Positions 3,147 to 56,551 of a stretch of 64,000 nucleotides of DNA are shown here, piece after piece. Every line of letters starts with the position of its first letter. Within the stretch, counting starts at the first letter, position 1. Made by a program: the position numbers and the translations under genes. Source of the DNA: Vicinamibacterales bacterium (lineage in GTDB: Bacteria > Acidobacteriota > Vicinamibacteria > Vicinamibacterales > JAMQPK01); assembly GCA_963832375.1 (NCBI GenBank), contig CAWHUA010000004.1:29352-93351 (forward strand), read 5' to 3'. The notes under the pieces are model-generated. The model saw only the letters and a program-made list of their open reading frames with translations, searched no databases and was not told the origin of the DNA.

Positions 3147-4216
3147 CCATCTCCGACATTCCAACTCCCGCCCTCATCGCCGACGTTGCCACGATGGAGC
3201 GCAACATCAGCCTCATGAGCGGTTACTTCGCGTCGCGCTCGTGCAAATTGAGGCCGCACTTCAAGGCACACAAGACCCCGGAAATCGCGCGGCGTCAGCT
3301 CGCCGCCGGCTCGTGTACCGGGCTCACGTGCGCAACGATCGGAGAAGCGGAAATCGCGGCGAACGTTTCGACGAACATTCTGATAGCCAACGAGATCGTC
3401 GACCCGGACAAGTGCAGGCGGGCTGCCGCCCTCGCGCGGACGGTCGCACTCACGGTGGCGGTCGACTCGGTTGTCGGCCTCGAACGGTGGAGTGCCGCAG
3501 CCATGGAAGCCGGCGTCACCATCGATGTGCTCATCGACTTGAACGTGGGTCAGAACCGTTGTGGGGTGACCCCCGGTGACGAGGCCGTCGCGCTGGGAAG
3601 AGCGGCGCTCGGCAGGCCCGCGTTGAAACTGCGCGGCGTGATGGGCTACGAAGGGCACGCGGTGGGCATCCACGATCGCGCCGAGCGCGAAGCGGCCGTT
3701 CGACGCTCGATGAACCTGATGGCATCGACGGCAAAGGCGTTTGCCTCCGTCGGCTTGCCGGCCGACGTCGTGTCAGGAGGCGGAACCGGCAGCTACGACA
3801 TCAGCAGCCAGATTGAAGGCATCACCGAGATTCAGGCGGGTTCCTATGCGCTGATGGACAGCGACTACGGCTGCCTGGGCATGCCGTTCGAGCAGGCGCT
3901 CTTCGTCCTCGGCACCGTGGTCAGCCGGCCCGTCCCCGAGCGCTGCGTCATCGACGCGGGCCACAAAGCGTGTACCAAGGATCACGGCCATCCATCGGTC
4001 AAAGGCATGAAGGAGGCCACCGTGCTCGCGCTCAACGACGAGCACGCGATCATCGCCATTCCGCCGACGAGCGCGATCAAGATAGGCGATCGCCTGGCGC
4101 TCGTGCCCTCACACATCGATCCGACGATGAACCTTCACGACCGGGTGTACGCGCTCGACGGTCACAACGTCGTCGGCGTGTGGCCGGTGGCAGCCAGAGG
4201 CTACGGTGTACCCTGA
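3143..4216 (+). CDS. DSD1-family PLP enzyme (D-serine deaminase / D-threonine aldolase-like, alanine-racemase N-terminal fold)
   Basis: ATGA overlap with the upstream gene. LRPHFKAHKT lysine motif typical of this family. 357 aa. Confidence 0.6.
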   Translation: MTISDIPTPALIADVATMERNISLMSGYFASRSCKLRPHFKAHKTPEIARRQLAAGSCTGLTCATIGEAEIAANVSTNILIANEIVDPDKCRRAAALARTVALTVAVDSVVGLERWSAAAMEAGVTIDVLIDLNVGQNRCGVTPGDEAVALGRAALGRPALKLRGVMGYEGHAVGIHDRAEREAAVRRSMNLMASTAKAFASVGLPADVVSGGGTGSYDISSQIEGITEIQAGSYALMDSDYGCLGMPFEQALFVLGTVVSRPVPERCVIDAGHKACTKDHGHPSVKGMKEATVLALNDEHAIIAIPPTSAIKIGDRLALVPSHIDPTMNLHDRVYALDGHNVVGVWPVAARGYGVP

Positions 4217-4292
4217 ATTGGCAGATTGGCAGATTGGTAGATTGGTAGATTGGTAGATTGGCAGATTGATTGGTGGATTGGCCGATTTGTGG
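4217..4292 (+). repeat. ATTGGYAG octamer tandem array (about 9.5 units) starting at the first base after the stop codon
   Basis: Read directly: ATTGGCAG x2, ATTGGTAG x3, ATTGGCAG, ATTG, ATTGGTGG, ATTGGCCG, ATTTGTGG. Confidence 0.95.
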
Positions 4293-4302
4293 TGGCCGAT
4301 CG

Positions 4303-5541
4303 TCAGAAGAAGATGTAACAGAATACCCCGCCGACGACCGTCATCGACAGGCCCCAGATGAGGAGCTTGTTGAAGACGCTGCGCACGTTCTCGCCAGACG
4401 CCACCGCGGCGATGCAGAGCGCGCCGGTCGTGGAGAGCGGCGACAGATCGACCAGGTGCGCGCCGATGTTCATCGAGGCGGCAATGGCCAGCGGGTCTCC
4501 CCCGCCGAGCCGCTCGATCAGGCCCGGGATCGTCGGGAGAAACGCCGGCAGCACCACGCCGGACGTGCTGCTGTAGACCGAAATCAGCCCCGTCACAAAC
4601 GCGATGACGCCCGTTATGGTCCCCGGCGTCGCCAGTCGGGCCAGCGCCGAGGTAAACAGGTCGAGGCCGCCTGTCTTCTCCATCAGCGCGATGAGCACCG
4701 TCACGCCGCTCATCATCACGATGACCGACCACGGCATTTTCTTGACCGACTCTTTGTGATCGGCGGCGCCGGCGACGGCGAGGATCACCGCGCCGGCAAA
4801 CGCGCCCATCCCGACGTTGACCCCGTAGAACAGCACTCCGATGAGCAGCGCGCCAATCACCACCATCGTGATGATGTTGCTGCGGTCGAACTCGATCTCG
4901 TCGGGTTTGTGGTCGATCGTGGCGACCGCGGACGACTGGAAGAGCTTCAGCCCGCCGAAGAGCGCGTACCCGCCGAACGCCACCGCCGCATGCGCGGCCA
5001 GATTCGTCCAGTAGGTGAACCACTCATGACCCGGCAGCCCGATCTTGATCATCAAGCCGTTCACGATGACGCCAGTCGGCGCAAAGGGCGAGAGCGCGCC
5101 GGACTGGGCGCCGTTGCCCACCATGATGATCATCAGGAACGCGGGAATGGCCGCACGGCCCGCGACGGCCATGGCCATCGGGCCGAGCAGCGCGGCCGTC
5201 GAGATGTTGCCAGGGCCGAGTGACGCCAGGGCGCAGGCGAGCATGAAAAACATGATCGGGATGAGCCCGGTGTTGCCGCGGCACAGCCGCACCGCGCGAT
5301 GAGCGATGCGGTCGAGCGTGCGGTTGAGCTGCGCCTGCGAGAACAGCAGCGTCACGCCGGCCAGCGTGAGAAAGAGCGACACGGGAAAGCCGCCGATGAC
5401 GTCGTTCAGCGGCATGCCGCCGACGTAGACGCCCACGATCCACGCGAGCGCGAGGGCAAGGATGCCGACGTTCAGCTCGGTGAAACAACTGACCAGGATC
5501 GCCACGACAAGCGCGGCCAGAGATACGTGCGCGAGGTTCAT
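4303..5541 (-). CDS. ion-transporter-superfamily anion permease (MatC/DASS/ArsB-like)
   Basis: 412-aa polytopic ORF, hydrophobic throughout. The N-terminus resembles MatC-type dicarboxylate carriers. The family call is from memory. Confidence 0.45.
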   Translation of the reverse strand: MNLAHVSLAALVVAILVSCFTELNVGILALALAWIVGVYVGGMPLNDVIGGFPVSLFLTLAGVTLLFSQAQLNRTLDRIAHRAVRLCRGNTGLIPIMFFMLACALASLGPGNISTAALLGPMAMAVAGRAAIPAFLMIIMVGNGAQSGALSPFAPTGVIVNGLMIKIGLPGHEWFTYWTNLAAHAAVAFGGYALFGGLKLFQSSAVATIDHKPDEIEFDRSNIITMVVIGALLIGVLFYGVNVGMGAFAGAVILAVAGAADHKESVKKMPWSVIVMMSGVTVLIALMEKTGGLDLFTSALARLATPGTITGVIAFVTGLISVYSSTSGVVLPAFLPTIPGLIERLGGGDPLAIAASMNIGAHLVDLSPLSTTGALCIAAVASGENVRSVFNKLLIWGLSMTVVGGVFCYIFF

Positions 5542-14050: not shown

Positions 14051-15231
14051 ATGACCACTCTGATTATCTCGGTGCTGGTCGCGCTCGCGACGGCCTCGTG
14101 GGCGCGTGGATCGGCATGGCGGTCGCCACACGGCGCTCGCGCATGACGCCGCGGCGCACGACCGTGGAAATGTCGCAGATGTCGCGGCGCGTGACCGAGC
14201 TCGAGACCGATCGCGCGCGCATGGCCGCGATCCTGTCGGGCATGGTCGAGGGCGTGCTGGTCGTCGACGGCGAGGGACGTCTGCGGCTCGTGAACGACGC
14301 CGCGCGCCGGATGCTGAATCTGGAAAGCGATCTGATCGGGCGTCATTACGTCGAAGCCGTACGCCAGCCTGCCGTCGTCCGGCAGCTCGGTGCGGCGCTT
14401 CGGGGCGAACAGGGCGCGCCCATCGAGGTGCCGCTCGGGGCGACCGAGGCCCCGCGGATCTTCCGCGCCCAGGCGACGCCGGCGACCGCGAGCGGCGGCG
14501 CCGTGCTCGTCCTGCACGACATCAGCGATCTCCGCCGCATCGATCGGGTGCGCCGCGACTTCGTCGCCAACGTCTCGCACGAGCTTCGTACGCCGCTGAC
14601 CGCCGTACGCGGCTATGTGGAAGCGCTGCTGGAAGACTCGGGCGAATTGGACCAGCGCAAGAAGTTTCTCGAGGTCATCGAACGCCACACCGCGCGCATG
14701 GAGCGGCTGGTTCGCGACTTGCTGCGTCTCGCCAGGCTCGACGCGCTGCAGGAAACGGTCGAGCTCCGCCCCATCGAGCCCGCCTCGCTTTTTCACTCGG
14801 TCTCGTCCGACCTCTCCGAGCGCATCGATCGAAAGCGCATCCAGGTGGAGGTGCGCGTCGATGCCGCTGCCCAGACGATCGAGGCGGACGCCACGAAGAT
14901 GCACGATGTGCTGCGCAACCTGATGGAAAACGCGGTGAACTACGCGCCCGACGGTGGACGTATCGAGCTCGGCGCGCGCCTCGACGGCGGGCGCGTGCTG
15001 CTGACCGTCGCCGACAACGGCCCCGGCGTACCGGAAACCGATCTCGAGCGCGTGTTCGAGCGCTTTTATCGCGTGGACAAGTCGCGAACGCAGGATCCCG
15101 GCGGCACCGGGCTGGGCTTGTCGATCGTGCGGCACCTCGTGGAGCTGCACGGCGGCCGCGTCAAGGCGGACAATCGGAAGGAAGGCGGGGCAGTCTTTAC
15201 GATTTCGCTGCCCCACTCACGAAATCGCTGA
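14051..15231 (+). pseudogene. PhoR-like sensor histidine kinase with one frameshift near 14095
   Basis: ATG 14051 lies 3 nt after the regulator stop and gives the TM helix MTTLIISVLVALATA. The gene continues in the frame of track ORF 13552..15231 (LVGAWIGMAV, FVANVSHELRTPLT, NLMENAVNYAP, DNGPGV, GGTGLGLSIV). Confidence 0.7.
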
Positions 15232-15271
15232 ATTCGCAGATTGGTAGATTGGTAGATTCGCAGATTGGCGT
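15232..15271 (+). repeat. ATTSGYAG octamer array (5 units) filling a convergent spacer
   Basis: ATTCGCAG ATTGGTAG ATTGGTAG ATTCGCAG ATTGGCGT starts at the first base after TGA 15229-15231. The convergent gene's stop codon is at 15275. Confidence 0.95.
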
Positions 15272-15274
15272 GGG

Positions 15275-16231
15275 CTACTGCGCCTGCGGCGCGAAGTATC
15301 CCAGCCTGGTGCGGACTCCTGCATCCGCGCGACTCACACGCACCATAATCGTGCGCCACTGGCCATCGCGCCGCTGATTCGCGGGCGTGTAGCCGAGCGT
15401 GTACTGCGCGGAAATCTCATCGTAGATCTGCGTGTACATCGATGCCAGGCTGCGCACATCCTGGGGAAAGAACGCGCGCCCTCCGGTGACCGTTGCGAGT
15501 TGCCGCAACGCGGACGTGAATTCGCGGTTTCCTTCAAGCTGCCCCTCACCCGTCAGTGCAATCACATAGATGGCCGCATGCGACCGCTTCGCCAGGTTCA
15601 GCGTCTCTTCGAACCTCATCGACGGCGATGCATCTCCTCCATCGGTGAGGAACACAATCGCGTCTCTCCGAATCGGGTAGGCTCCCTCTGCTGGCGCCGC
15701 TTCGAGTCTACGTCGCAGGAGGTGGAGTGCATCATGAACAGGTGCTTGCTTGAACGGTGCGGTCCTCCGTATGGCGCGTTCGAGTGTTCCACGATCGGCA
15801 GTGAAGGGCTGGTGGACCTCGCCGCCCCTCACGAACCCGGCAACATCTGCCATGTCGGTCGCACGCAACTTTCGGACGAGCGCAATCGCCGCGTCCTGTA
15901 TATCTCTTGTTCGTGCGTCTGCCGCTGATCGCGCGTCGATGAGCAGTGAGAGCGCGATGGGTACGTCGCTGCGATGAAAGAGCTCGACGCGCTGTGCCAC
16001 CCCATCCTCGAGCACTTCGAACGCGGCCTTGGCAAGATCTGGTACCGGGCAGCCATCCCACCCGGCACTCCAATACGCGGGATAGCGAGTAAAGCATTGC
16101 CGTGACTGATCGGTCACCGTGATGTTCAGCGAAACAATTTCAGTCGCGGACGCGAAGCGAGCGATCTCTTGCGCAGCCGTGGGCAAGGCCGCCAGTCCCA
16201 TCATTGCGATCGCGAGAACCGTTCGATGCAT
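15275..16231 (-). CDS. secreted VWA-domain protein (VWFA-related Acidobacterial-domain type)
   Basis: The internal ATG 16231 of track ORF 15275..16282 gives the signal peptide MHRTVLAIAMMGLAALPTAAQ. VWA-like core (LLIDARS, FLTDGGD). The C-terminus (YTLGYTPAN, RTRLGYFAP) matches my memory of TIGR03436. Confidence 0.6.
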   Translation of the reverse strand: MHRTVLAIAMMGLAALPTAAQEIARFASATEIVSLNITVTDQSRQCFTRYPAYWSAGWDGCPVPDLAKAAFEVLEDGVAQRVELFHRSDVPIALSLLIDARSAADARTRDIQDAAIALVRKLRATDMADVAGFVRGGEVHQPFTADRGTLERAIRRTAPFKQAPVHDALHLLRRRLEAAPAEGAYPIRRDAIVFLTDGGDASPSMRFEETLNLAKRSHAAIYVIALTGEGQLEGNREFTSALRQLATVTGGRAFFPQDVRSLASMYTQIYDEISAQYTLGYTPANQRRDGQWRTIMVRVSRADAGVRTRLGYFAPQAQ

Positions 16232-16240
16232 CTCGCCATT

Positions 16241-16276
16241 TAATCTACCAATCTGCCAATCTGCCAATCTGCGAAT
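16241..16276 (-). repeat. ATTSGYAG octamer array (minus-strand sense) between two co-oriented genes
   Basis: The plus strand reads CTACCAAT CTGCCAAT CTGCCAAT CTGCGAAT. On the minus strand the array begins 9 nt after the TAG of the DUF218 gene. Confidence 0.95.
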
Positions 16277-16285
16277 AGTCATTCA

Positions 16286-17059
16286 CTACGCCCACCCCCT
16301 GACCTTGTAGTAGCCGATCGCAAACAGATCGTACAGAACGCGCTCGCTGAGGTGAAGCGCGGCAAGGGATGGCAGGTACATTTCGAAGCGTGCGCCGCGG
16401 CTGACGTACTCTTCGGGCGCCGAAGGAACCGGGTCGGTGCCCGCGACACGAAACGCCGCGAGGGATCGCCGCATGTGCTGTCTGGACGTCACCAGCACGA
16501 ACTGACCGAGGCCGTGTGCCTTCAGGACCGGCGGCACGAGCAATGCGTGATCGCGGGTGTTGCTCGCGTGCTCTTCCTTGATGATGCGATCGACCGGTAT
16601 GCCCAGCTCCTGCAGTTGATGCGCCATCAGCCCGGCTTCCGTGTACTGGTCAGAGCCGTGGCTGCCCGTCGTGACAATCGGCACCCCGCCGAGTACCCGG
16701 GACACCCGCGCCGCCTCCATGACGCGCAGCCATCCCTCGCGCGTGGGCACGCCCCGGGACTCGCCGCGCGATCGATGAATCTCCATGCCCGCGCCCAGCA
16801 CGACGACGGCCGTTGCGCCGCGCGCGTCTGCCTGTGACATCACCGGCGGATAGTCGGGAGAGAACGATCGGATGAACGCGACGGCGGCGATCGGTGTGCT
16901 CAGAGCCCAATAGAGCGCGACCAGCGTGGCTACCCAGATTCGGCCCACGCGCCCGCCGTCCTTCCGGCGAAACAGCAGGCACACACCGGGGAGCAGCATG
17001 AAGAGGAAGAACGGAATCGAGCCGGGGACGAACAGCTCTTTCAGCGGAAGAGGCACCAC
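16286..17059 (-). CDS. DUF218 (YdcF/ElyC-like) membrane-anchored protein
   Basis: 257 aa with two N-terminal hydrophobic helices followed by a YdcF-like core (VVVLGAG, FVLVTSRQHMRRS). Confidence 0.55.
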   Translation of the reverse strand: MVPLPLKELFVPGSIPFFLFMLLPGVCLLFRRKDGGRVGRIWVATLVALYWALSTPIAAVAFIRSFSPDYPPVMSQADARGATAVVVLGAGMEIHRSRGESRGVPTREGWLRVMEAARVSRVLGGVPIVTTGSHGSDQYTEAGLMAHQLQELGIPVDRIIKEEHASNTRDHALLVPPVLKAHGLGQFVLVTSRQHMRRSLAAFRVAGTDPVPSAPEEYVSRGARFEMYLPSLAALHLSERVLYDLFAIGYYKVRGWA

Positions 17060-17311: not shown

Positions 17312-17372
17312 AAGACTCAGTGTGCCTCCGTGCCTCTGTCCCTCCGTGTTTAAGCACGCTCCGTGTCCTCAC
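17281..17372. repeat. CCTCCGTG / CACGGAGG-type oligomer arrays in inverted arrangement
   Basis: Plus strand 17281-17300 reads GGCACGGAG AAACACGGAC. Plus strand 17321-17372 reads GTGCCTCCGTG CCTCTGTC CCTCCGTG ... CTCCGTGT CCTCACAC. The arms bracket the annotated TTG start at 17311. Confidence 0.85.
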
Positions 17373-19609: not shown

Positions 19610-21179
<1,570 letters not shown>

Positions 21180-21339
21180 TAGTAGGTTCGTCGGTTCGTG
21201 GGGTTCGTCGGGGTTCGTGGGGTTCGTCTGGGTTCGAGCCTGCGACCGAATAACCGGTAGTGCGCGACTTCAGTCGCGCCGTACGAACCGTACGAACCCA
21301 CGAACCTTACGAACCTACGAACCCGACGAACCCAACGAA
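21180..21339. repeat. composite inverted array: six GGTTCGT units, a central GC hairpin, seven ACGAACC units
   Basis: It occupies the entire 160-bp spacer between convergent stops (TAA 21177-21179, TAG 21340-21342). The central hairpin is GCGCGAC-TTCA-GTCGCGC at 21262-21279. Confidence 0.9.
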
Positions 21340-22287
21340 CTACCTTTTCTCAAAACTCTTGTAGTTCTCCTTCGTCACCAGCTCGAACGGAATCCAGACG
21401 AAGCTGTCGACCGCTTCTCCACGCGACAGTTTCAGCGCCGCGTCGAGGGCGCCCCGCCCCTGGCCGCGGGCGTCCTGAAACACGGTGACGGCCAGCGTGC
21501 CCTTCCCCACTTCGGCAAGCGCATCGGGCGTGGCATCGACACCACCCACCAGGATCGTGCCCTGCTTCGCGCCGGCCTGTTGAATCGCCATGATCGCGCC
21601 GATCGCCATCTCGTCGTTGTTCGACGCCACGGCGTCGATCTTCGTGCCGGCCGTCAGCCAGTTGTTCATGAGGTCGAGCCCGCGCTCGCGCTGGAAGTTG
21701 GCCACCTGTTTCTCGACGATCTTCATCCCTGGATATTTCGCGACCACGTCCTCGACCGCCTTCGTCCGAAGCTGCGCGCCGTTGGACGCCAGCTCGCCAA
21801 CCATGATCGCCACGTTACCCCGGTGGTTCATCAGCCGTGCGAGCTCCTCCATTTCCAGCGTGCCGGCCTGCGAGTCCTCCGAGCCGACAAAGACGACCCC
21901 CTTCGGCAGCGTTTCTTCCGAGGGCCGCCGGTTGACGTACACCAGCGGCACACCGGCGTCGCGCGCCACTTTGGTCATGCTCGGCGTTGCCGACGTGTCG
22001 GCGGCGTTCACGATGAGCGCGGCCACACCCTGCGCCACGAAGTTCTGGATCTGATTCAGCTGCCGGGCGACGTCGCCCTGGGCGTCGGAGAACTGCAGCG
22101 CGACGCCAGGCAGCGTCGCCGCGTGCTCGGTCATCGACGTGCGCAGGATCGTGAGCCAGAGGTCGTCGAAATGCGCCATCGAGACCCCGATCACGGGTGT
22201 CCGGGGCGCAGAGGACCCACAACCCTGGCCACCGAGTGCGAGCACGAGCAGCGCGGCCAGGCATCCGAATCTCACCTTCGATATCAC
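21340..22287 (-). CDS. sugar ABC transporter substrate-binding lipoprotein (RbsB-like)
   Basis: Lipobox-like LALGGQGC. Periplasmic-binding-protein type I pattern (IGVSMAHFDD, ALIVNAAD). First gene downstream of the permease and ATPase. Confidence 0.7.
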   Translation of the reverse strand: MISKVRFGCLAALLVLALGGQGCGSSAPRTPVIGVSMAHFDDLWLTILRTSMTEHAATLPGVALQFSDAQGDVARQLNQIQNFVAQGVAALIVNAADTSATPSMTKVARDAGVPLVYVNRRPSEETLPKGVVFVGSEDSQAGTLEMEELARLMNHRGNVAIMVGELASNGAQLRTKAVEDVVAKYPGMKIVEKQVANFQRERGLDLMNNWLTAGTKIDAVASNNDEMAIGAIMAIQQAGAKQGTILVGGVDATPDALAEVGKGTLAVTVFQDARGQGRGALDAALKLSRGEAVDSFVWIPFELVTKENYKSFEKR

Positions 22288-25776: not shown

Positions 25777-26694
25777 CTATTTCAAGAAAGGGGCCAGGCC
25801 GGAGCCCTTCTTAAGGGCAAGGACCTCGTCGAGGGCCGGCACGGACGGAATGGCGCCGAGTCGCGTACAGCTGATGGCTGCCGTCGCATTGGCAAACCGG
25901 AGAATCTCCGGCACCGGCCATTGCTGAAGCAGTCCGTAGATGAATCCCGCACGGAACACGTCGCCGGCACCCGTGGCGTCGACGACCTTCACGCTGTAGG
26001 CAGGCGCAGTGTAAAACGCGTCCCCCTCGAGCGCCACCGCGCCTTCTTCCGCCAGCGTCATGACCAGGGTGCCCTCGTTCAGGCGGCGCAATTTCCTCAG
26101 CGCCCGCTCGGGGTCGCGTTCTCCGGTCAGGCGCAGGGGGAGATGCTGCTCGAAGATCGGATAGGTCACGGCTCGAATGAGCTCTTCCACCCGATCGACC
26201 GGGTGCTCGATGTCGCTCGTCACCATGGCACCCGCCGCACGCGCGGCGCGCACGGCAGCCATCGCCAACTGCAGATCGTCGTCATCCACGTGGACGATGC
26301 GAGCCGCCACCGACTCTGGCGTCAACACGTCCTGCGGAACGACCAGATGTCCGCTCCGATGCCACAACACGGTCCGCCGCCCGGCCGTGTCGACGAGAAT
26401 GATCGCTCCGCGATTGGGCGCATCGGCCACGACAGCATGCGAGAGATCGACACCACGCGAGAGCAATCCATCGCGCGCCAGCCCGCCGTTCGCGTCCGAT
26501 CCGAACGCACCGATGTAACCGGTTCGCAAGCCCAGGACCGCACACGCCGCCGTCACGGTGGCCGTCTGGCCACCCATGATGACGTGCCGGCTGGTCACGC
26601 GCGCCTTGCTCGATTCCAGCACGGCAGACAGTTCTCCGCCGAGCTGGATCACGTCATCGACGGAGTTGGTTCCGACTCCTACTACATCCAGCAT
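25777..26694 (-). CDS. PfkB-family carbohydrate kinase
   Basis: PfkB signature DATGAGDVFRAGF. N-terminus VVGVGTNSVD. 305 aa. Confidence 0.7.
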   Translation of the reverse strand: MLDVVGVGTNSVDDVIQLGGELSAVLESSKARVTSRHVIMGGQTATVTAACAVLGLRTGYIGAFGSDANGGLARDGLLSRGVDLSHAVVADAPNRGAIILVDTAGRRTVLWHRSGHLVVPQDVLTPESVAARIVHVDDDDLQLAMAAVRAARAAGAMVTSDIEHPVDRVEELIRAVTYPIFEQHLPLRLTGERDPERALRKLRRLNEGTLVMTLAEEGAVALEGDAFYTAPAYSVKVVDATGAGDVFRAGFIYGLLQQWPVPEILRFANATAAISCTRLGAIPSVPALDEVLALKKGSGLAPFLK

Positions 26695-26806
26695 TGGCAG
26701 ATTCGCAGATTGAAAATTGGAAGATTGAGAGCCGCCGGTCCGATCGTCACTCTAGCAATATTCTGCAAATCCGCCAATCAATCTACCAATCTGCGAATCT
26801 GCGAAT
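26693..26806 (-). repeat. two ATTSGYAG-type arrays in inverted orientation around a 29-bp core
   Basis: The plus strand reads ATTGGCAG ATTCGCAG ATTGAAA ATTGGAAG ATTGAGAG, then a core, then CTGCAAAT CCGCCAAT CAAT CTACCAAT CTGCGAAT CTGCGAAT. The array begins 6 nt after the glnE-like stop and ends by contributing the AT of the PfkB ATG. Confidence 0.9.
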
Positions 26807-28192: not shown

Positions 28193-28379
28193 GGTTTAGT
28201 CGCAAGGCGAAAGTCGCCCCTCGACTTCGCTCGGGGCGATCCTGAGCTTGTCGAAGGGTCGGAAGTCGGGAGTCGCAAGGCGCCAGTGCCCGGTGACAGT
28301 CGACCGCCACTGTCGACTGCGACGCGCGACCGACTTGGGACTGCCCACTTTCGACTGACGCCTTGCGACTGACACGTCT
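28193..28379 (-). other. 187-nt structured spacer between glnB and the glnE-like gene
   Basis: A 12-nt closing pair AGTCGCAAGGCG (28198-28209) / CGCCTTGCGACT (28359-28370) and a third direct copy at 28271-28282. Inner hairpins are TCGCCCC/GGGGCGA (28214-28239) and CAGTCGAC/GTCGACTG (28297-28319). Confidence 0.7.
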
Positions 28380-39302: not shown

Positions 39303-41033
39303 TCAGGCGTCTTGTCTGTGGCTGCTGAGGAAGGCTTCGAGCGCGAACTGATCGGCGCTCGTAAACGACACCCCGGCGCGGTACCACAACTGACCGGATT
39401 TCGGTTCGAGGCGCGACCACATCACCTTCGCCTTACAGGCAATGAGACTGTCGCCCATCGGCATGGTGAGCTTGACCAGCCTGTTCGGTTTCATCGAGAA
39501 CGGCGTCAGCACCTGGGCACCGGTGACGGAGAGATCGATCAGTTTGCCTTCGGTGCCGTCGATCTGCACCTCGACCTCGGTGGAAATCGCGACACGTTTG
39601 GCACCGCGCGCCGGGCCTCGATACGCGGGTTCGTTCGCATCCGAGGAGAGCGCGGACTCCATCGCCAGGGACGGCGTCTCCGAGGGTGGAAGGGCCAGCA
39701 GCCGCTGCTGATCGAGCTCGAGCTCTGCGATCTCGGCACGCGCCTCAGCATCCCGGAGCGCGCCCTCGAGGCTCCGGATCCGGTTTTCAATCAACCGCTG
39801 CCGTTCTTCGTCCCTCGTATCGACCGTCAGATCGATCACGGTTTCCTCGATGGGCTCCTCGTCGCCATCGATCACGAGCTGAGGCCCCGACTGCAGCGAT
39901 CGCGCCGCGTCGCGCTCCTCGTGCGCGGTTTGCAGCTCCTGCCTCAGGAACTCTCGTTCGCGAATCGCCTCATGGGCCAGCTCGAGCTCGCGCCTCAGCG
40001 CATCGCGTTCGCGCAGGGCCTCGTCGACCAGTGCATCGGCCGCCCGAGTGGCCTCTTCCGCTCGTGCATCGGCGGCACGAATGGCCTCTTCGACTCGTGC
40101 GTCGGCGACACGAACGGCTTCTTCGGCCCGTGCATCGGCGGCACGAGCGGCGTCCTGTGCCGAAACGAGGAGATGGCTCTGATCGGATTCCGAGCGCGAG
40201 AGGGCCTCGTGCCTGGCGTCCGTCTCGCGGCGCATTCCGTCGATCTCGTGGCGCGCCGCCGCGAGCTCGCCGCGCGTCCACTCGAGATCGCGTTCGAGCT
40301 GGGCCGACGCTTCGCGCAACTGCGCAGCCGCCGCGCGCTCGGTATCGGCCGTCGCGCGAGCCTGCTCCATTTCCGCCCGCCCGGCAGCCTGGGCGGCCTG
40401 CGCGTCCTTCAGCTGCTGATCGACGCCCTGATGGCGCGCCGCGAACTCCTGGAGCTTTGCCGCAATCTCGCGCTGTTGCGCTTCGACGACCGCCCGCGAG
40501 GCTTGCGCCTCGCCACGGACCTGCTCGACGGCCTGCTCGAGACCAGCGGCGCGAGTCCGTTCGGACTGGGCGGCGGCTTGCGCCGCTTCAAGCTCGCGTT
40601 CGAGAGCGGCGCGTTCGGCCTGCTCCTGTTCGAGGCGCTGCTGCACCGCTTCGACCTCGCGCTGCGCGCCGGACGAGTCGCGGGCGGCCGCGTCGACGAC
40701 GCGACGCTGCTCTTTCAGCTCGGCCTGCGCTTTGTCCAGCGCCTGGCGCAATTGCGCCACGGTGCCCTTTTCGGATTCCAGCGCCGATTCCGCCTCACCG
40801 CGCGCCGCAGCGGCCGCGCTTTGCCCGTGCCGCTGTGCGTCGTGCACCACCTGCCGCACGGTCGTGTCCGCCTCGTCGGTGGCCACGCGCGCCAGGTCGC
40901 GAATCAGCGATTCGAGCGAGGCGTGCTTGCCGGGATTCGCCAGCGCCTCTTCGAGCGCGCCCAGCCGCGACGCCATCGACGCGCGCAGGGCTTCGACCTC
41001 CTTCGGCACAGCCTGTTTGGCACTCTTTTTCAC
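39303..41033 (-). CDS. long coiled-coil protein with C-terminal PilZ domain
   Basis: About 470 aa of A/E/R/Q-rich heptad-like sequence. Then RGAKR (RxxxR) followed 19 residues later by DLSVTG (DxSxxG), which are the two PilZ c-di-GMP motifs. Confidence 0.6.
   Translation of the reverse strand: MKKSAKQAVPKEVEALRASMASRLGALEEALANPGKHASLESLIRDLARVATDEADTTVRQVVHDAQRHGQSAAAAARGEAESALESEKGTVAQLRQALDKAQAELKEQRRVVDAAARDSSGAQREVEAVQQRLEQEQAERAALERELEAAQAAAQSERTRAAGLEQAVEQVRGEAQASRAVVEAQQREIAAKLQEFAARHQGVDQQLKDAQAAQAAGRAEMEQARATADTERAAAAQLREASAQLERDLEWTRGELAAARHEIDGMRRETDARHEALSRSESDQSHLLVSAQDAARAADARAEEAVRVADARVEEAIRAADARAEEATRAADALVDEALRERDALRRELELAHEAIREREFLRQELQTAHEERDAARSLQSGPQLVIDGDEEPIEETVIDLTVDTRDEERQRLIENRIRSLEGALRDAEARAEIAELELDQQRLLALPPSETPSLAMESALSSDANEPAYRGPARGAKRVAISTEVEVQIDGTEGKLIDLSVTGAQVLTPFSMKPNRLVKLTMPMGDSLIACKAKVMWSRLEPKSGQLWYRAGVSFTSADQFALEAFLSSHRQDA
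40032..40158 (-). repeat. in-frame 33-bp tandem repeat (about 3.8 copies) inside the coiled-coil gene
   Basis: The plus strand shows TGCATCGGCNGCNCGAnnGGCCTCTTCnnCTCG repeated. It encodes ARAADARAEEA / VRVADARVEEA / IRAADARAEEA. Confidence 0.8.
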
Positions 41034-41108: not shown

Positions 41109-42368
41109 GTGGCGTTGATACTTGCCATCAACCCGGGAAACAGCCATAGCCCCACGCTCGCCCGTCTTGCGCGCGAATTGCAGGGATGCGAGCTCATCGG
41201 CGCTGACTCCTGTGCGGTTGCCATTACTGCAATCAACAAGCGCGTGCCCGACCTCGTGCTGCTGCCCGAGAGACCCGCGAAAGGAGAGGCCGACCTCCTT
41301 GCGCGTCTCCGAGCGATACCGGGCGGCGTGCTCACGCTGAAGCTGCCTCCCGTCTCATCGGCCGATCCGACGGCGATCGCCAAGGACATCCGCATAATGC
41401 TCGCGGGCGAGACCACCGCGCAGGCGCCGGCACCAGTACGAGCGCCAGCACCAAAGGTCAGCGGTCCATCGCCACATCTGGTTGCCGCCGCAAAGGCGAT
41501 GATCGACTGGGTTCACACACGTCAGGCCCAATGGGCCGAGGCCGAACGTCTCGATCTGGCTCCCGAACCGCTGGCCGTCTCGGCTTCGGCCGGCAGGTCC
41601 GAACCTCACGAACCCTACGAACCTTACGAACCCAACGAACCCCACGAACCCCACGAACCTCTCGATCACGATATGTTTGGCGCAAGCGAGCCGGCCGGCA
41701 GCACCTGGTTACCTCGCGTCGCCATCGTTGCCGCACTCCTGGGAGCAGGAGCGGCGGGCGTCTGGCTGTGGCCGAGCCTTCGCGGCGGCACATCCAGCGG
41801 GGTGACTCAGGCGAGCGCGCCGCAGGACACGGCCCCGGTCGACAGCAACGCCCCGCCGGCTGCAGTGCCCACACCAGTTCCCGGCACACAGGCGACGGTG
41901 CCCGCGCCGACTCAGCCGACGATCGACAAGCCGGGCGCGGTTCCTGCGGATGCTGCCGCTACGGTGGGAGGGTTTGTGGCCGTTTCTGCACCGTTCGACA
42001 TCAGCATCACCAACGCCGCTCAGCCGGTCACGGTCGACGATCGCGGGCGTGCCATGCTGCCTTCGGGCAAATACCGCCTCAGGTTCCAGAATCGCGAGGT
42101 CGGTTACGACGAGACACGCGCCGTCGAAGTACGACCAACCGAAACGACGACGATCAACCTCGTTCCGCAAACCGCGCTCAACGTCACCGCAAACGAATCC
42201 GCGGAAGTGCTCGTCGATGGAGAGCGCACCGGCGAAACACCCTTCAACGGCCGAATCCCGTATGGCGCGCATACCGTCACGGTGAGAACCGCCGGCGGCG
42301 AGCGCCAGTTTCAGATCGAGGCCACGATGAAGCCGGTTCAACTCGAGGTCGATTTCTCGAAGCCATGA
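41109..42368 (+). CDS. membrane protein: pseudo-receiver-like N-terminus, EP[HYN] repeat, TM helix, C-terminal PEGA domain
   Basis: GTG start. The N-terminal ~90 aa are receiver-like but lack the acceptor Asp (DLVLLPE). TM helix VAIVAALLGAGAAGVWLW. PEGA-like segment AEVLVDGERTGETPFNGRIPYGAHTVTV. Confidence 0.5.
   Translation: MALILAINPGNSHSPTLARLARELQGCELIGADSCAVAITAINKRVPDLVLLPERPAKGEADLLARLRAIPGGVLTLKLPPVSSADPTAIAKDIRIMLAGETTAQAPAPVRAPAPKVSGPSPHLVAAAKAMIDWVHTRQAQWAEAERLDLAPEPLAVSASAGRSEPHEPYEPYEPNEPHEPHEPLDHDMFGASEPAGSTWLPRVAIVAALLGAGAAGVWLWPSLRGGTSSGVTQASAPQDTAPVDSNAPPAAVPTPVPGTQATVPAPTQPTIDKPGAVPADAAATVGGFVAVSAPFDISITNAAQPVTVDDRGRAMLPSGKYRLRFQNREVGYDETRAVEVRPTETTTINLVPQTALNVTANESAEVLVDGERTGETPFNGRIPYGAHTVTVRTAGGERQFQIEATMKPVQLEVDFSKP
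41601..41663 (+). repeat. seven codon-aligned 9-bp units GAACCNNAC encoding EPHEPYEPYEPNEPHEPHEPL
   Basis: Read directly. It shares 14-15-nt strings (CGAACCTTACGAACC, CGAACCCAACGAAC) with the intergenic array arm at 21281-21339. Confidence 0.9.
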
Positions 42369-48866: not shown

Positions 48867-48901
48867 TACTTTTTACTTTTCACTTTTCACTTTTTACTCT
48901 C
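48867..48901. repeat. YACTTTT heptamer tandem array in a convergent spacer
   Basis: TACTTTT TACTTTT CACTTTT CACTTTT (T) TACTCTC, between stops at 48850 and 48907. Confidence 0.9.
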
Positions 48902-54904: not shown

Positions 54905-54942
54905 GCAAAGAACGCGACAACACACACACGGAAAGATCTAAC

Positions 54943-55016
54943 AAGAGATCAGGAGTTCAAGAGATCAGGATTAGTAGTTCTCCTGATCTCCTGAACCCTG
55001 TTTTTTTGTGTTTTTC
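54943..55016 (+). terminator. hairpin plus T-tract terminator built from AAGAGATCAGGAG units
   Basis: GTTCAAGAGATCAGGA (54955-54970), 10-nt loop, TCCTGATCTCCTGAAC (54981-54996; one mismatch), then TTTTTTTGTGTTTTT. An extra direct copy of AAGAGATCAGGAG is at 54943. The gltD stop is at 55018. Confidence 0.6.
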
Positions 55017-55017
55017 G

Positions 55018-56466
55018 TTACGAGAGGGGCGCCGGCAGATCCGATTTGCCCATCAGGAAGAGATCGACGCCGCGTGCCGCGCTGCGGCCCTCGGCAATCG
55101 CCCACACGATCAGCGACTGGCCGCGCTGCATGTCGCCGGCGGCGAAGATGCCGGGCACGCTCGTCATCCAGTTCGCGTCGCGCCACACGTTACCGCGCTC
55201 GGTCAGCTTGACGCCGAAATTCTCGAGCAATCCCTGACGCTCGGGGCCGAGAAAGCCCATGGCGAGCAGCACGAGGTCGACATCCATCTCGAACTCGCTG
55301 CCCGGCACCTGTTCGAACGACATCTTGCCGTCTTTGCGCACGAGCTCGACCGTCGAGCCGTGCAGCTTCTTCACGCGCCCCTGGTCGTCTCCGCTGAAAC
55401 GCTGGGTCGAGACCGAGTACACCCGCTCGCCCCCCTCTTCGTGAGCGGTCGACACGCGGAAGACGTTCGGCCATGTCGGCCATGGATTGTCCGCGGCGCG
55501 GGTGTCCGGCGGCTTCGGGAGCAGCTCGAACTGATGCACGGACAGAGCGCCCTGGCGGTGGACCGTTCCGAGGCAGTCGGCTCCCGTATCGCCGCCGCCG
55601 ATGATCACGACGCGCTTGCCCTTGGCCGTGATGAAGTCGGCGTCAGCAATCGTGTCGCCTTCCACCCGTTTGTTCGAGAGCGTCAGGTACTCCATCGCGA
55701 AATGGACGCCCTTCAGCTCGCGGCCCGGCACCTGGAGATCGCGCGGCCAGCCGGCGCCGCCGGCCAGGACCATCGCGTCGTATTCCGACTTCATCCGATC
55801 GATCGTCAGGTCTACGCCGACGTTGACCTTCGTGCGGAACGTCACGCCTTCCTGTTCCATCAGCGTCAACCGGCGATTCAGGACCTTCTTCTCCATCTTG
55901 AACTCGGGGATGCCGTAGCGCAGCAGCCCGCCGATGCGATCGGCCTTTTCGAAGACGGTGACGAAGTGACCCGCGCGGTTCAGCTGCTCGGCCGCCGCCA
56001 GTCCGGCCGGGCCGGAGCCGATGACCGCGACCTTCCGGCCGGTGCGCACGAGCGGCGCCTTGGGGGTCACCCAGCCCTGTTCGAAGGCTTTCTCGATGAT
56101 CGCCACTTCGATCGACTTGATCGTGACGGGGTCGTCGTTGATGCCGAGCACGCACGACCCTTCACACGGCGCCGGGCAGAGGCGCCCGGTGAACTCGGGA
56201 AAATTGTTCGTCGCGTGCAGCCGGTCGATGGCCGGCTCCCATCGATCGCGGTACACGAGATCGTTCCAGTCGGGAATCAGGTTGCCCAGCGGGCAGCCCT
56301 GATGGCAGAACGGAATGCCGCAGTCCATGCAGCGCGCGCCCTGCTTCTGGAGCTCTCCCTGCGCGTACGGAAGATAGACCTCTCTCCAGTCGTTGAGCCG
56401 CTCGGGCACAGGACGGGTCGACTGTTTCTTCCGGTGAATTTCGATAAAACCTGTTGGTTTACCCAT
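55018..56466 (-). CDS. gltD: glutamate synthase (NADPH) small subunit
   Basis: 482 aa. Cys cluster CMDCGIPFC...GCPLGN. Two dinucleotide folds VAVIGSGPAGLAAA and VVIIGGGDTGADC. Confidence 0.85.
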   Translation of the reverse strand: MGKPTGFIEIHRKKQSTRPVPERLNDWREVYLPYAQGELQKQGARCMDCGIPFCHQGCPLGNLIPDWNDLVYRDRWEPAIDRLHATNNFPEFTGRLCPAPCEGSCVLGINDDPVTIKSIEVAIIEKAFEQGWVTPKAPLVRTGRKVAVIGSGPAGLAAAEQLNRAGHFVTVFEKADRIGGLLRYGIPEFKMEKKVLNRRLTLMEQEGVTFRTKVNVGVDLTIDRMKSEYDAMVLAGGAGWPRDLQVPGRELKGVHFAMEYLTLSNKRVEGDTIADADFITAKGKRVVIIGGGDTGADCLGTVHRQGALSVHQFELLPKPPDTRAADNPWPTWPNVFRVSTAHEEGGERVYSVSTQRFSGDDQGRVKKLHGSTVELVRKDGKMSFEQVPGSEFEMDVDLVLLAMGFLGPERQGLLENFGVKLTERGNVWRDANWMTSVPGIFAAGDMQRGQSLIVWAIAEGRSAARGVDLFLMGKSDLPAPLS

Positions 56467-56469
56467 AAC

Positions 56470-56544
56470 TCAAGAAAAAACAAAACAAGAGACTAAGAGA
56501 TTAGGAGTCTTCTTTGAAAAGAATTCTCCTAGTCTCTTAATCTC
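56470..56544 (-). terminator. terminator-like hairpin plus T-tract between gltB and gltD
   Basis: Arms GAGACTAAGAGATTAGGAG (56489-56507) and CTCCTAGTCTCTTAATCTC (56526-56544), with two mismatches and a self-pairing loop. On the minus strand it is followed by TTGTTTTGTTTTTTCTT, which ends 6 nt before the gltD ATG. Confidence 0.5.
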
Positions 56545-56551
56545 CTGTTTC

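Follow-up and report, generated by a model that had tools for sequence, protein, structure and literature searches.

A strand-oriented family of tandem octamer repeats at gene junctions of Vicinamibacterales-like Acidobacteriota and Chloroflexota

Introduction

Tandem repeats with units of 7-9 nucleotides (nt) at bacterial gene ends have been on record since the short tandemly repeated repetitive (STRR) heptamers of heterocystous cyanobacteria, and they are still without an explanation. Here we analyse arrays of the octamer ATTSGYAG in a stretch of 64,000 nt from a Vicinamibacterales bacterium (contig CAWHUA010000004.1, positions 29,352 to 93,351; the whole stretch is called the window below) and their counterparts in other genomes and in metagenomes. 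Another class of high-copy intergenic repeats, REP/BIME/REPIN, is likewise found at gene 3' ends and within operons. The REP unit is an imperfect palindrome of ~20-40 nt and not a tandem array; inverted doublets form hairpins, singlets are regarded as decayed halves, a cognate RAYT (Y1 transposase) gene belongs to the system, presence/absence polymorphism occurs, and roles in mRNA stabilisation and in termination have been described.

Three reports come closest to the arrays studied here. Rehm et al. (2015) characterized GGGNATC and GGGGA(C/T)T heptamer arrays of Xanthomonas and Nostoc, which are over-represented in non-coding DNA (PMC4692102). These arrays lie nearer to the open reading frame (ORF) at their 5' end, irrespective of how it is oriented, prefer four units, occur as inverted copies and are transcribed; related species carry them between the same gene pairs with varying length and sequence, and no function has been assigned (PMC4692102). 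MacGregor (2015) found TAACTGA heptamer direct repeats in Beggiatoaceae, Cyanobacteria and Bacteroidetes, suspected horizontal spread and proposed a role involving an RNA-binding protein (PMC4679880). Subirana and Messeguer (2019) presented short-unit satellites, for instance (GATAGRA)n of Chloroflexus and (AGGGGAGT)2 of Mesorhizobium, for which a transposition-like spread was suggested (PMC6749651).

The ATTSGYAG arrays resemble the GGGNATC-type repeats in being a dispersed short unit, repeated head to tail at many loci of a genome and its relatives. They too lie nearer to the 5' ORF, on its coding strand when they follow the stop codon and on its non-coding strand when they precede the start codon, and those of Vicinamibacterales type, in contrast to those of Chloroflexota, prefer four units. 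The differences concern the unit, which has 8 nt, contains a GG tract only and yields no predicted quadruplex; the hosts, which are Acidobacteriota and Chloroflexota; and the build of the Vicinamibacterales-type arrays, which start with GA, end with ATTA and have a steadier unit number. As no G-quadruplex is predicted, we place the ATTSGYAG arrays in the wider kind and not in its quadruplex-forming subclass. With the TAACTGA repeats they have in common that a specific short unit is abundant in intergenic DNA of distant phyla, often only a few nt from a start codon, as are the antisense arms in Chloroflexota. Unit and hosts are different, and TAACTGA is located mainly upstream of starts on the coding strand, whereas ATTSGYAG is located mainly after stops, and on the opposite strand when it is near a start. 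A single ATTSGYAG array is distinguished from REP by its lack of self-complementarity. The short-unit satellites are comparable as 7-8-nt tandem families that occur genome-wide with their sequence kept at many loci; units and hosts differ, and the parts of the satellite report that bear on these families give no position or orientation rule (PMC6749651).

An initial annotation of the window had treated the repeat as uncatalogued. With respect to its kind this has to be corrected, as the same position rule and the four-unit preference have been published for the Xanthomonas and Nostoc heptamers (PMC4692102). A search of the accessible literature for the exact dimer sequences gave no match, and the ATTSGYAG octamer is a new unit family within an already published kind of gene-end repeat. 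The arrays are a dispersed, strand-oriented tandem-octamer family that fills gene junctions in Vicinamibacterales-like Acidobacteriota and, as ATTGGTAG, in Anaerolineae and Caldilineales. With a confidence a little short of even, we read this family as one that has a role in termination or at the 3' ends of transcripts and that has spread by copying.

Results

Octamer arrays follow stop codons at four gene junctions of the window

Five ATTSGYAG arrays are located at four gene junctions of the window (Table 1). The dimer pattern ATTSGYRGATTSGYRG, with at most one mismatch, matches the window 17 times compared to 0.07 matches expected from shuffles, and Tandem Repeats Finder recovers every array. 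When the positions were re-read, all four sites were found where the initial annotation had placed them, and Pfam agrees with its gene assignments (DSD1-like, MatC, histidine kinase, VWA, DUF218, PfkB and GlnE). The window has a G+C content of 64-68%, proteins encoded in it share 61-65% identity with Vicinamibacterales-named proteins, and its gene order is that of contigs from Vicinamibacterales-like metagenome-assembled genomes (MAGs); a soil Vicinamibacterales is thus its most likely source. The site 1 stretch is present in bog, rhizosphere, soil and sediment metagenomes.

The site 1 array comprises six full units, a half unit and three degenerate units. Its first base abuts the TGA of the DSD1-like gene (4214-4216), and it occupies 76 of the 86 nt between two convergent stops, the stop of the MatC-type transporter gene (4303-4305) lying 10 nt past the array. 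Site 2 has five units, which fill 40 of the 43 nt between the histidine-kinase stop (15229-15231) and the stop of the minus-strand VWA gene (15275-15277). At site 3, four units and an ATTA begin 9 nt past the DUF218 stop (16288-16286), and the final full unit stops 13 nt short of the VWA start codon ATG (16231-16229). Sites 2 and 3 (15232-16276) are arranged in -> <- orientation around the 957-nt VWA gene. The proximal arm of site 4 begins 6 nt past the GlnE-like stop (26815-26813), and the 5' end of the distal arm overlaps the ATG of the minus-strand PfkB gene (26694-26692) by 2 nt; together the two arms form a -> <- pair.

Each proximal array of the window starts 0-9 nt past the stop of a co-oriented gene. 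The initial annotation had stated for all sites that the ATTGGYAG sense strand follows a stop codon at this distance; this holds for the proximal arrays, while the plus-strand arm of site 4 lies at the PfkB ATG instead. The degenerate tail that had been ascribed to sites 1 and 4 (YAG ATTG ATTGGYGG) is real and is also found in two unrelated contigs (L072 and L168). Independently assembled Logan contigs from soil metagenomes and metatranscriptomes cross sites 2 and 3 without gaps, demonstrating that the arrays are not an assembly artefact.

The position and orientation rule holds in two phyla

Genes were called from codon usage, with log-odds scores derived from the long ORFs of the loci analysed; the stops are exact and the starts approximate. 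Each array was read as ATTGG..., and its distances to the nearest ORF on the 5' and on the 3' side were determined for 73 arrays, comprising 19 of Vicinamibacterales type and 54 others. The 5' ORF is the nearer one in 16 of the 19 Vicinamibacterales-type arrays (p = 0.004), with median distances of 11 nt on the 5' side and 74 nt on the 3' side. The same is seen for 44 of the 54 other, mostly Chloroflexota arrays (p = 3e-6; medians 17 nt and 85.5 nt). Next to Vicinamibacterales-type arrays the 5' neighbour is almost always co-oriented and the array onset lies -8 to +13 nt from its stop; in the wider set the array-to-stop distances are mostly -8 to +17 nt. Convergent-gene junctions hold 11 of the 19 Vicinamibacterales-type arrays, and in solitary arrays of this type the 5' end is the nearer one in 11 of 12 cases. 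The repeat that the initial annotation described from the window is found in other genomes, and its rule of orientation and position relative to the stop codon extends to these 19 and 54 arrays.

A second class of Chloroflexota loci has the start of an opposite-strand gene as 5' neighbour. Many of these loci (e.g. L001, L004, L021, L028, L044 and L049) carry a degenerate inverted array downstream. Such a locus runs from the stop of gene A through (ATTGGTAG)n, a loop, (CTACCAAT)m and a ribosome-binding site to the start of gene B, and site 4 of the window is built likewise. At other loci of this class (e.g. L006, L009, L042 and L076) no inverted partner is seen. Where an oppositely oriented partner lies within 250 nt, the orientation is -> <- for 14 of 14 arrays and <- -> for none.

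The antisense strand of the ATTGGTAG arrays, CTACCAAT, contains no stop codon in any frame (e.g. at L030, L031, L034 and L036). ORFs therefore run through the arrays and ORF calls are inflated; a simple gene caller placed 26 arrays inside ORFs. In these Chloroflexota genomes the arrays are thus likely to cause genes to be called too long.

Distribution, unit composition and array structure

An exact search for the pattern ATTGGYAGATTGGYAGATTGG in one genome per species gave at least 118 loci. Among the matches listed, most belong to MAGs of Anaerolineae, Caldilineales and other Chloroflexota, and at least 10 Vicinamibacterales MAGs carry the pattern. Further arrays were found with a second pattern scan in high-GC metagenome contigs, a scan in which only arrays of at least three units in high-GC contigs are informative. 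Two-unit metagenome matches were discarded as mostly due to chance: 20 of 20 in high-GC contigs have no extra flanking units, and 67 of the 78 low-GC matches are of two units. Soil metagenome contigs are 5- to 20-fold deeper over the arrays than beside them and disagree with one another in their flanks; the repeat is therefore high-copy and present at many loci.

Within the family consensus ATTSGYAG the least variable positions are A7, G8, A1, T2 and T3, i.e. the motif AG-ATT across the unit boundary (90-100%), and positions 4-6 vary. The units used are ATTGGTAG (49% of units) and GTTGGTAG in Chloroflexota arrays, which show a broad spread of 3-35 units, and ATTGGCAG, ATTGGTAG and ATTCGCAG in Vicinamibacterales-type arrays. 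When metagenome contigs are included (n = 52), 16 of these arrays have three units, 26 have four, seven have five, two have six and one has seven. Four units are also commonest in the genome-scan sample of this type (14 of 25 arrays), a preference that Chloroflexota arrays lack. The onset is preceded by GA in 17 of the 52 arrays, a terminal partial unit ATTA or ATTG is present in 31, and ATTCGCAG is the first unit in 10 and the last unit in two. A polarity of decay from 5' to 3' within the arrays was marginal (p = 0.05).

The defined start and end, the position-specific unit variants and the degenerate tail (AG ATTG ATTGGYG) of sites 1 and 4 and two unrelated contigs favour copying between loci over independent slippage. 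The initial annotation had argued, on the basis of the tail, for common descent or templated spread rather than independent slippage, and the bias of ATTCGCAG towards the first position, the ATTA/ATTG ends and the occurrence of the ATTG-ATTGGYGG tail across genomes favour its view.

Two sets of taxonomic labels in the scanned material are at odds with the sequences. Loci L003, L040, L081 and L243 stem from a MAG labelled 'uncultured Bifidobacteriaceae' (CAYHHH01, GCA_964356125.1), yet have 64-65% G+C and Vicinamibacterales-type arrays. Over 4.3 kb this MAG shares 83% identity with a Vicinamibacterales MAG (L077), it has gene order in common with the window, and its label is probably wrong. Loci L047 and L084 are 100% identical over 7987 nt and come from MAGs labelled Candidatus Peribacter and Methanobacteriota archaeon, respectively; they appear to be one contig binned into two unrelated MAGs.

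Arrays turn over at orthologous junctions

An array-less allele of site 1 is present on contigs from two soil metagenome runs, which are ~96% identical to the window and skip 4207-4293. In this allele the DSD1-like ORF would read on into the convergent gene. At the DSD1/MatC junction of relatives with a DSD1-like protein 80-82% identical to that of the window, one locus (L239) has a GTCTTCGT octamer array and two others (L240 and L241) have GC-rich hairpins.

Site 3 is kept in a contig ~90% identical to the window. It is also kept at locus L242, where the DUF218 protein is 93% identical and the array, ATTCGCAG ATTGGCAG ATTCGCAG ATTGGGGG ATTGG, again lies 9 nt past the stop. At the more distant locus L243 (DUF218 67% identical) a compact hairpin, CCGGGTCT-N8-AGACCCGG, is found in place of the array. 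Locus L242, from which the VWA-less allele past 15212 was read, has neither the VWA gene nor the site 2 array, and the DUF218 and kinase genes are therefore convergent there. It retains ~10-20 nt that resemble the VWA 5' end (GGTTCTCGCG), and this remnant suggests a deletion in L242 and not an insertion in the window. A search of metagenome contigs for relatives of the VWA protein gave 201 pattern matches, none of which was confirmed. The junction between the ATP-grasp gene and the small gene that follows it carries a GGAGGCAC-type array in the window and, in L242, a ATTCGCAG-type array that extends from the stop to the ribosome-binding site; in L243 the two genes overlap and leave no spacer. 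The turnover of junctions among relatives thus indicates that the niche persists, while the individual array is dispensable and replaceable.

Orthologous Chloroflexota loci have arrays at the same junction with differing numbers of units (4 vs ~9, 7 vs at least 15, and 8 vs 5), and locus L107 has none. Between the close relatives compared, the unit number of Vicinamibacterales-type arrays is little changed. With respect to sequence, the arrays of L017 and L048 differ by three substitutions and two indels in 64 nt (~5-8%), compared to 9-11.5% at third codon positions, and the arrays of the window and L242 diverge by ~13%, compared to 10% at third codon positions.

Folding and probable transcription of the arrays

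The site 4 RNA (26815-26690, minus strand) has a folding energy of -47 kcal/mol (z = -3.6), and none of 200 shuffles is as stable; the proximal arm is predicted to form the 5' arm of a long imperfect hairpin. An inverted pair of a different unit, GGTTCGT (21185-21340), reaches -87.9 kcal/mol (z = -8.3). Site 1 RNA is weakly structured on the plus strand (z = -2.35), and its antisense RNA is unpaired over the whole array (-8.4 kcal/mol, z = -0.78). Sites 2 and 3 show no structure beyond that of shuffles (z = 0.24 and 0.02).

The z-scores of sites 1-3 are in agreement with the statement of the initial annotation that these sites are not hairpin terminators. CRISPR repeats are 24-48 nt long with unique spacers of similar length between them. 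The units of the arrays measure 8 nt and abut directly without spacers, so that CRISPR had rightly been dismissed, as had REP elements, since single arrays have no self-complementarity and the unit is not palindromic. Rfam gives no match at the gathering score anywhere in the window, and no canonical promoter or terminator motifs were found at the arrays, their number being that expected from shuffles.

Rhizosphere metatranscriptomes contain contigs over site 2 (15185-15369), from site 3 into DUF218 (16258-16407) and over the GGTTCGT pair, and these three repeats are therefore probably transcribed.

Sibling repeat units in the window

The octamer is not the only repeat unit at the junctions of the window, where at least nine of ~35 intergenic spacers are made of 7-9-nt tandem units (Table 1). 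The plus arm of the GGTTCGT(N1-3) pair (21185-21236) begins 5 nt past the stop of a sigma-54 activator gene, the minus arm (21340-21282) reaches the stop of a periplasmic-binding-protein gene (21340-21342), and the arms form a -> <- hairpin. Hairpins built of octamers near 54940-55017 and 56470-56551 carry T-runs. These AGGAGATY/TCTCCTRA hairpins resemble canonical intrinsic terminators built of tandem octamers and might connect this class of repeats with termination. A further repeat-built junction is the 187-nt spacer 28193-28379 between two minus-strand genes, in which heptamer-like units of the types GTCGSRA and TCGACTG are frequent in either orientation.

Table 1. Tandem repeat arrays at gene junctions of the window
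Feature	Position	Strand	Units or location
Site 1 array	4217-4292	+	ATTGGCAG x2, ATTGGTAG x3, ATTGGCAG, half unit ATTG, ATTGGTGG, ATTGGCCG, ATTTGTGG
Site 2 array	15232-15271	+	ATTCGCAG, ATTGGTAG x2, ATTCGCAG, ATTGGCGT
Site 3 array	16276-16241	-	ATTCGCAG, ATTGGCAG x2, ATTGGTAG, ATTA
Site 4 proximal arm	26806-26763	-	ATTCGCAG x2, ATTGGTAG, ATTG, ATTGGCGG, ATTTGCAG
Site 4 distal arm, inverted, more degenerate	26693-26731	+	ATTGGCAG, ATTCGCAG, ATTGAAA, ATTGGAAG, ATTGAGAG
GGTTCGT(N1-3) inverted pair	21185-21340	both	same class, different unit
TACTTTT heptamer array	48867-48898	+	16 nt past TauE-family gene stop (48850), between convergent genes
GGAGGCAC-type octamer array	17322-17348	-	spacer between ATP-grasp gene and small downstream gene
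AGGAGATY/TCTCCTRA octamer hairpins with T-runs	54905-55017, 56410-56551		TGTTTTTTTGTGTTTTT; TTGTTTTGTTTTTT

Discussion

As a working model we prefer a terminator or 3'-end niche for the arrays because they alternate with compact hairpins at orthologous junctions, because inverted pairs fold into long hairpins, and because two other octamer hairpins of the window carry T-runs. According to this reading the arrays would occupy the terminator niche that compact GC hairpins hold at the same junctions in relatives. They would be co-transcribed with the upstream gene and, where paired, form a long hairpin, which could act as a terminator or as an RNA-stabilising or processing stem. A single array, i.e. 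three to four units with an ATTA, would provide a C-poor, unstructured 3' untranslated region or intercistronic spacer. At its four or five evenly spaced AGAUU cores a factor specific for single strands might then dock or cleave. The arrays are quickly replaced by other unit families and probably spread via some copying process. The data show the build of the arrays, their orientation rule, distribution and turnover, their coverage by RNA contigs and the potential of pairs to form hairpins; any influence on termination or on the processing of RNA, the responsible factor and the way of copying are what we infer from these.

The enterobacterial RNase E consensus is RN/WUU, and AGAUU fits it. As a general explanation of gene-end repeats the AGAUU core was rejected: it fits the ATTSGYAG family and TACTTTT and is absent from GGTTCGT, GTCTTCGT and GGAGGCAC.

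Several observations weigh against a terminator or 3'-end role. Site 3 lies at an operon-type junction, where termination is not expected. In the two close pairs compared, array divergence is near the synonymous rate and thus gives no sign of purifying selection, and the array-less allele and the junctions with overlapping genes imply that any function of the arrays is dispensable. An intrinsic terminator consists of a GC-rich hairpin followed at once by a U-tract. A scan of the region for this combination picked out no ATTSGYAG site and gave 11 terminator-like sites compared to 11.8 in shuffles; the site 4 hairpin, although strong, has no U-tract, as is the case for ATTSGYAG hairpin pairs in general. 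The RNA contigs are of low depth and possibly include DNA, so that they demonstrate coverage and neither transcript ends nor cuts. The match of AGAUU to the RNase E consensus was made post hoc from the sequence and is kept only as an idea that may apply to this one family.

Part of the same evidence could be explained by a selfish, REPIN-like non-autonomous mobile repeat without host function, an explanation that we regard as on the unlikely side and yet take seriously. Inverted doublets would be the mobilisable form, single arrays their decayed halves, and an enzyme acting in trans, possibly transferred horizontally between Chloroflexota and Acidobacteriota, would copy them; the position rule would result from target preference together with selection against harmful insertions. 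This is consistent with the presence/absence polymorphism between close strains, the loss or gain of an array together with the VWA gene, the near-neutral divergence, the internal positional structure, the recurrence of the ATTG-ATTGGYGG tail among unrelated genomes, the presence of one unit in two phyla, doublets that are exclusively -> <-, and the high copy number in soil metagenomes. In addition, the 87-nt difference at site 1 brings a new stop codon and replaces the last codons of the gene. Polymorphism, near-neutral drift, doublets and the distribution across phyla are explained about as well by a mobile repeat as by the terminator or 3'-end reading. A mobile repeat is at variance with the site 1 junction, where, at limited resolution, neither a target-site duplication nor a terminal inverted repeat is seen, with a unit and array that, unlike REP, are not palindromic, and with unit numbers of 3-35 in Chloroflexota, as found in slippage-prone repeats. 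Several unrelated unit families that follow one rule in one genome would require several mobilising systems or one without sequence specificity, and a Pfam scan of the flanking genes found no transposase beside the window arrays. Alternatively, a dedicated factor with sequence specificity might write, bind or cut the octamer arrays and their sibling units, which would then be its footprint, and this factor might be shared horizontally between Chloroflexota and Vicinamibacterales; the candidate would be an RNA- or single-stranded DNA-binding protein, a nuclease or a transposase-like enzyme. We judge this distinctly unlikely; if true, one general mechanism would underlie the STRR, GGGNATC and TAACTGA repeat families. 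Little credence is given to neutral replication slippage at unconstrained gene ends, with the common unit as a coincidence of mutational bias and with neither copying nor function. Slippage would fit the differing unit numbers at orthologous Chloroflexota loci, the replacement of one unit family by another at a single junction and, again, the near-neutral divergence. It leaves unexplained why an identical 8-mer recurs at four junctions within 64 kb and, across two phyla, at hundreds of loci, why the orientation is biased even between convergent genes, where both orientations should be equally tolerable (11 of 12 solitary arrays of Vicinamibacterales type), why arrays have defined GA...ATTA ends, why three or four units are in excess and numbers fall sharply at five, and why several genomes have the degenerate tail in common.

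The two remaining explanations invoke a property of the nucleic acid itself. In the less improbable of them, for which we see only a slim chance, the arrays are orientation-specific antisense insulators: the opposite strand, which reads (CUGCCAAU)n or (CUACCAAU)n and is similar to a site of Rho loading, would halt convergent or antisense transcripts before they enter the protected gene. A rut site is a C-rich, G-poor and unstructured stretch of roughly 60-80 nt on the terminated RNA. Sense array RNA is G-rich and C-poor and does not have this composition. The antisense RNA is C-rich, G-poor and unstructured: that of ATTGGTAG contains no G and 37.5% C, and that of site 1 is essentially unpaired. 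The large share of Vicinamibacterales-type arrays between convergent genes, the lack of enrichment of canonical intrinsic terminators in the region and the low C content of all sibling unit families on the strand after the stop codon point in the same direction. Most arrays, however, measure only ~32-36 nt and are short for Rho loading, many lie between co-oriented genes where the neighbour does not transcribe the antisense strand (site 3), and in the start-codon class of Chloroflexota the C-rich strand would fall in the gene's own 5' leader. Cyanobacteria, to our knowledge, lack Rho. The same position rule in Nostoc (PMC4692102) therefore also argues against a Rho insulator. The initial annotation had further considered two-tier G-quadruplexes with GG every 8 nt. 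To such structures in DNA or RNA, which have been proposed for GGGNATC repeats, we give next to no chance here. It is true that four units are commonest among Vicinamibacterales-type arrays in both samples (14 of 25 and 26 of 52), that the GG spacing is fixed and that the position rule is identical to that of quadruplex-forming heptamers. The tracts, however, have two guanines only, and ViennaRNA assigns +15.3 kcal/mol to two layers joined by 6-nt linkers and predicts no quadruplex, while a GGGAAUC control forms one at -8.4 kcal/mol. Moreover, 14% of the units have C for the first G (the ATTCGCAG variant) and lose the GG tract, so that four tracts are kept in only about half of the arrays with 4-5 units; the four-unit array of site 3 has three. 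The energy model and the GG-destroying unit variants together rule out this structure.

Because the gene-end rule and the four-unit preference are kept by a unit without quadruplex ability, the rule would be independent of quadruplex chemistry. An octamer that follows the strand and position rule with about four units and forms no quadruplex weakens the sole structural explanation so far offered for such repeats, and it is abundant in two major, little-studied phyla of soil and wastewater. The array-plus and array-minus alleles in natural populations provide natural controls for effects on transcript ends.

Additional observations

No tRNA gene is present in the window. The sequence GTTGGTAGA / TTGGTAGA equals a common segment of the tRNA D-loop (U16-A23), and GGTTCGA is similar to the T-loop; we take this as probably a chance likeness. 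The two main unit families of the window thus recall the two most conserved tRNA motifs.

Repeats are also found within genes. A probable coding repeat is the 33-nt tandem repeat at 40017-40151 (~4 copies, 81% matches) within the minus-strand ORF 39303-41033. A nonamer array at 41600-41665 has the core ACGAACC, as in the intergenic GGTTCGT/ACGAACC pair, and lies in frame in ORF 41109-42368. This ORF has a C-terminal PEGA domain, the array encodes (EPx)n, i.e. SEPHEPYEPYEPNEPHEPHEPL, and frame +1 scores best throughout; an alternative start at ~41672 would put the array just upstream of the start codon.

The gene next to the GGTTCGT pair, which encodes a GAF / sigma-54-activator / HTH_8 protein (19610-21179), is broken into at least three overlapping ORFs (19610-20125, 20122-20631 and 20583-21179), and part of its AAA+ domain is in none of them. 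It is either a pseudogene or the result of indel errors in the assembly; the orthologue at locus L243 is intact, with 521 residues.

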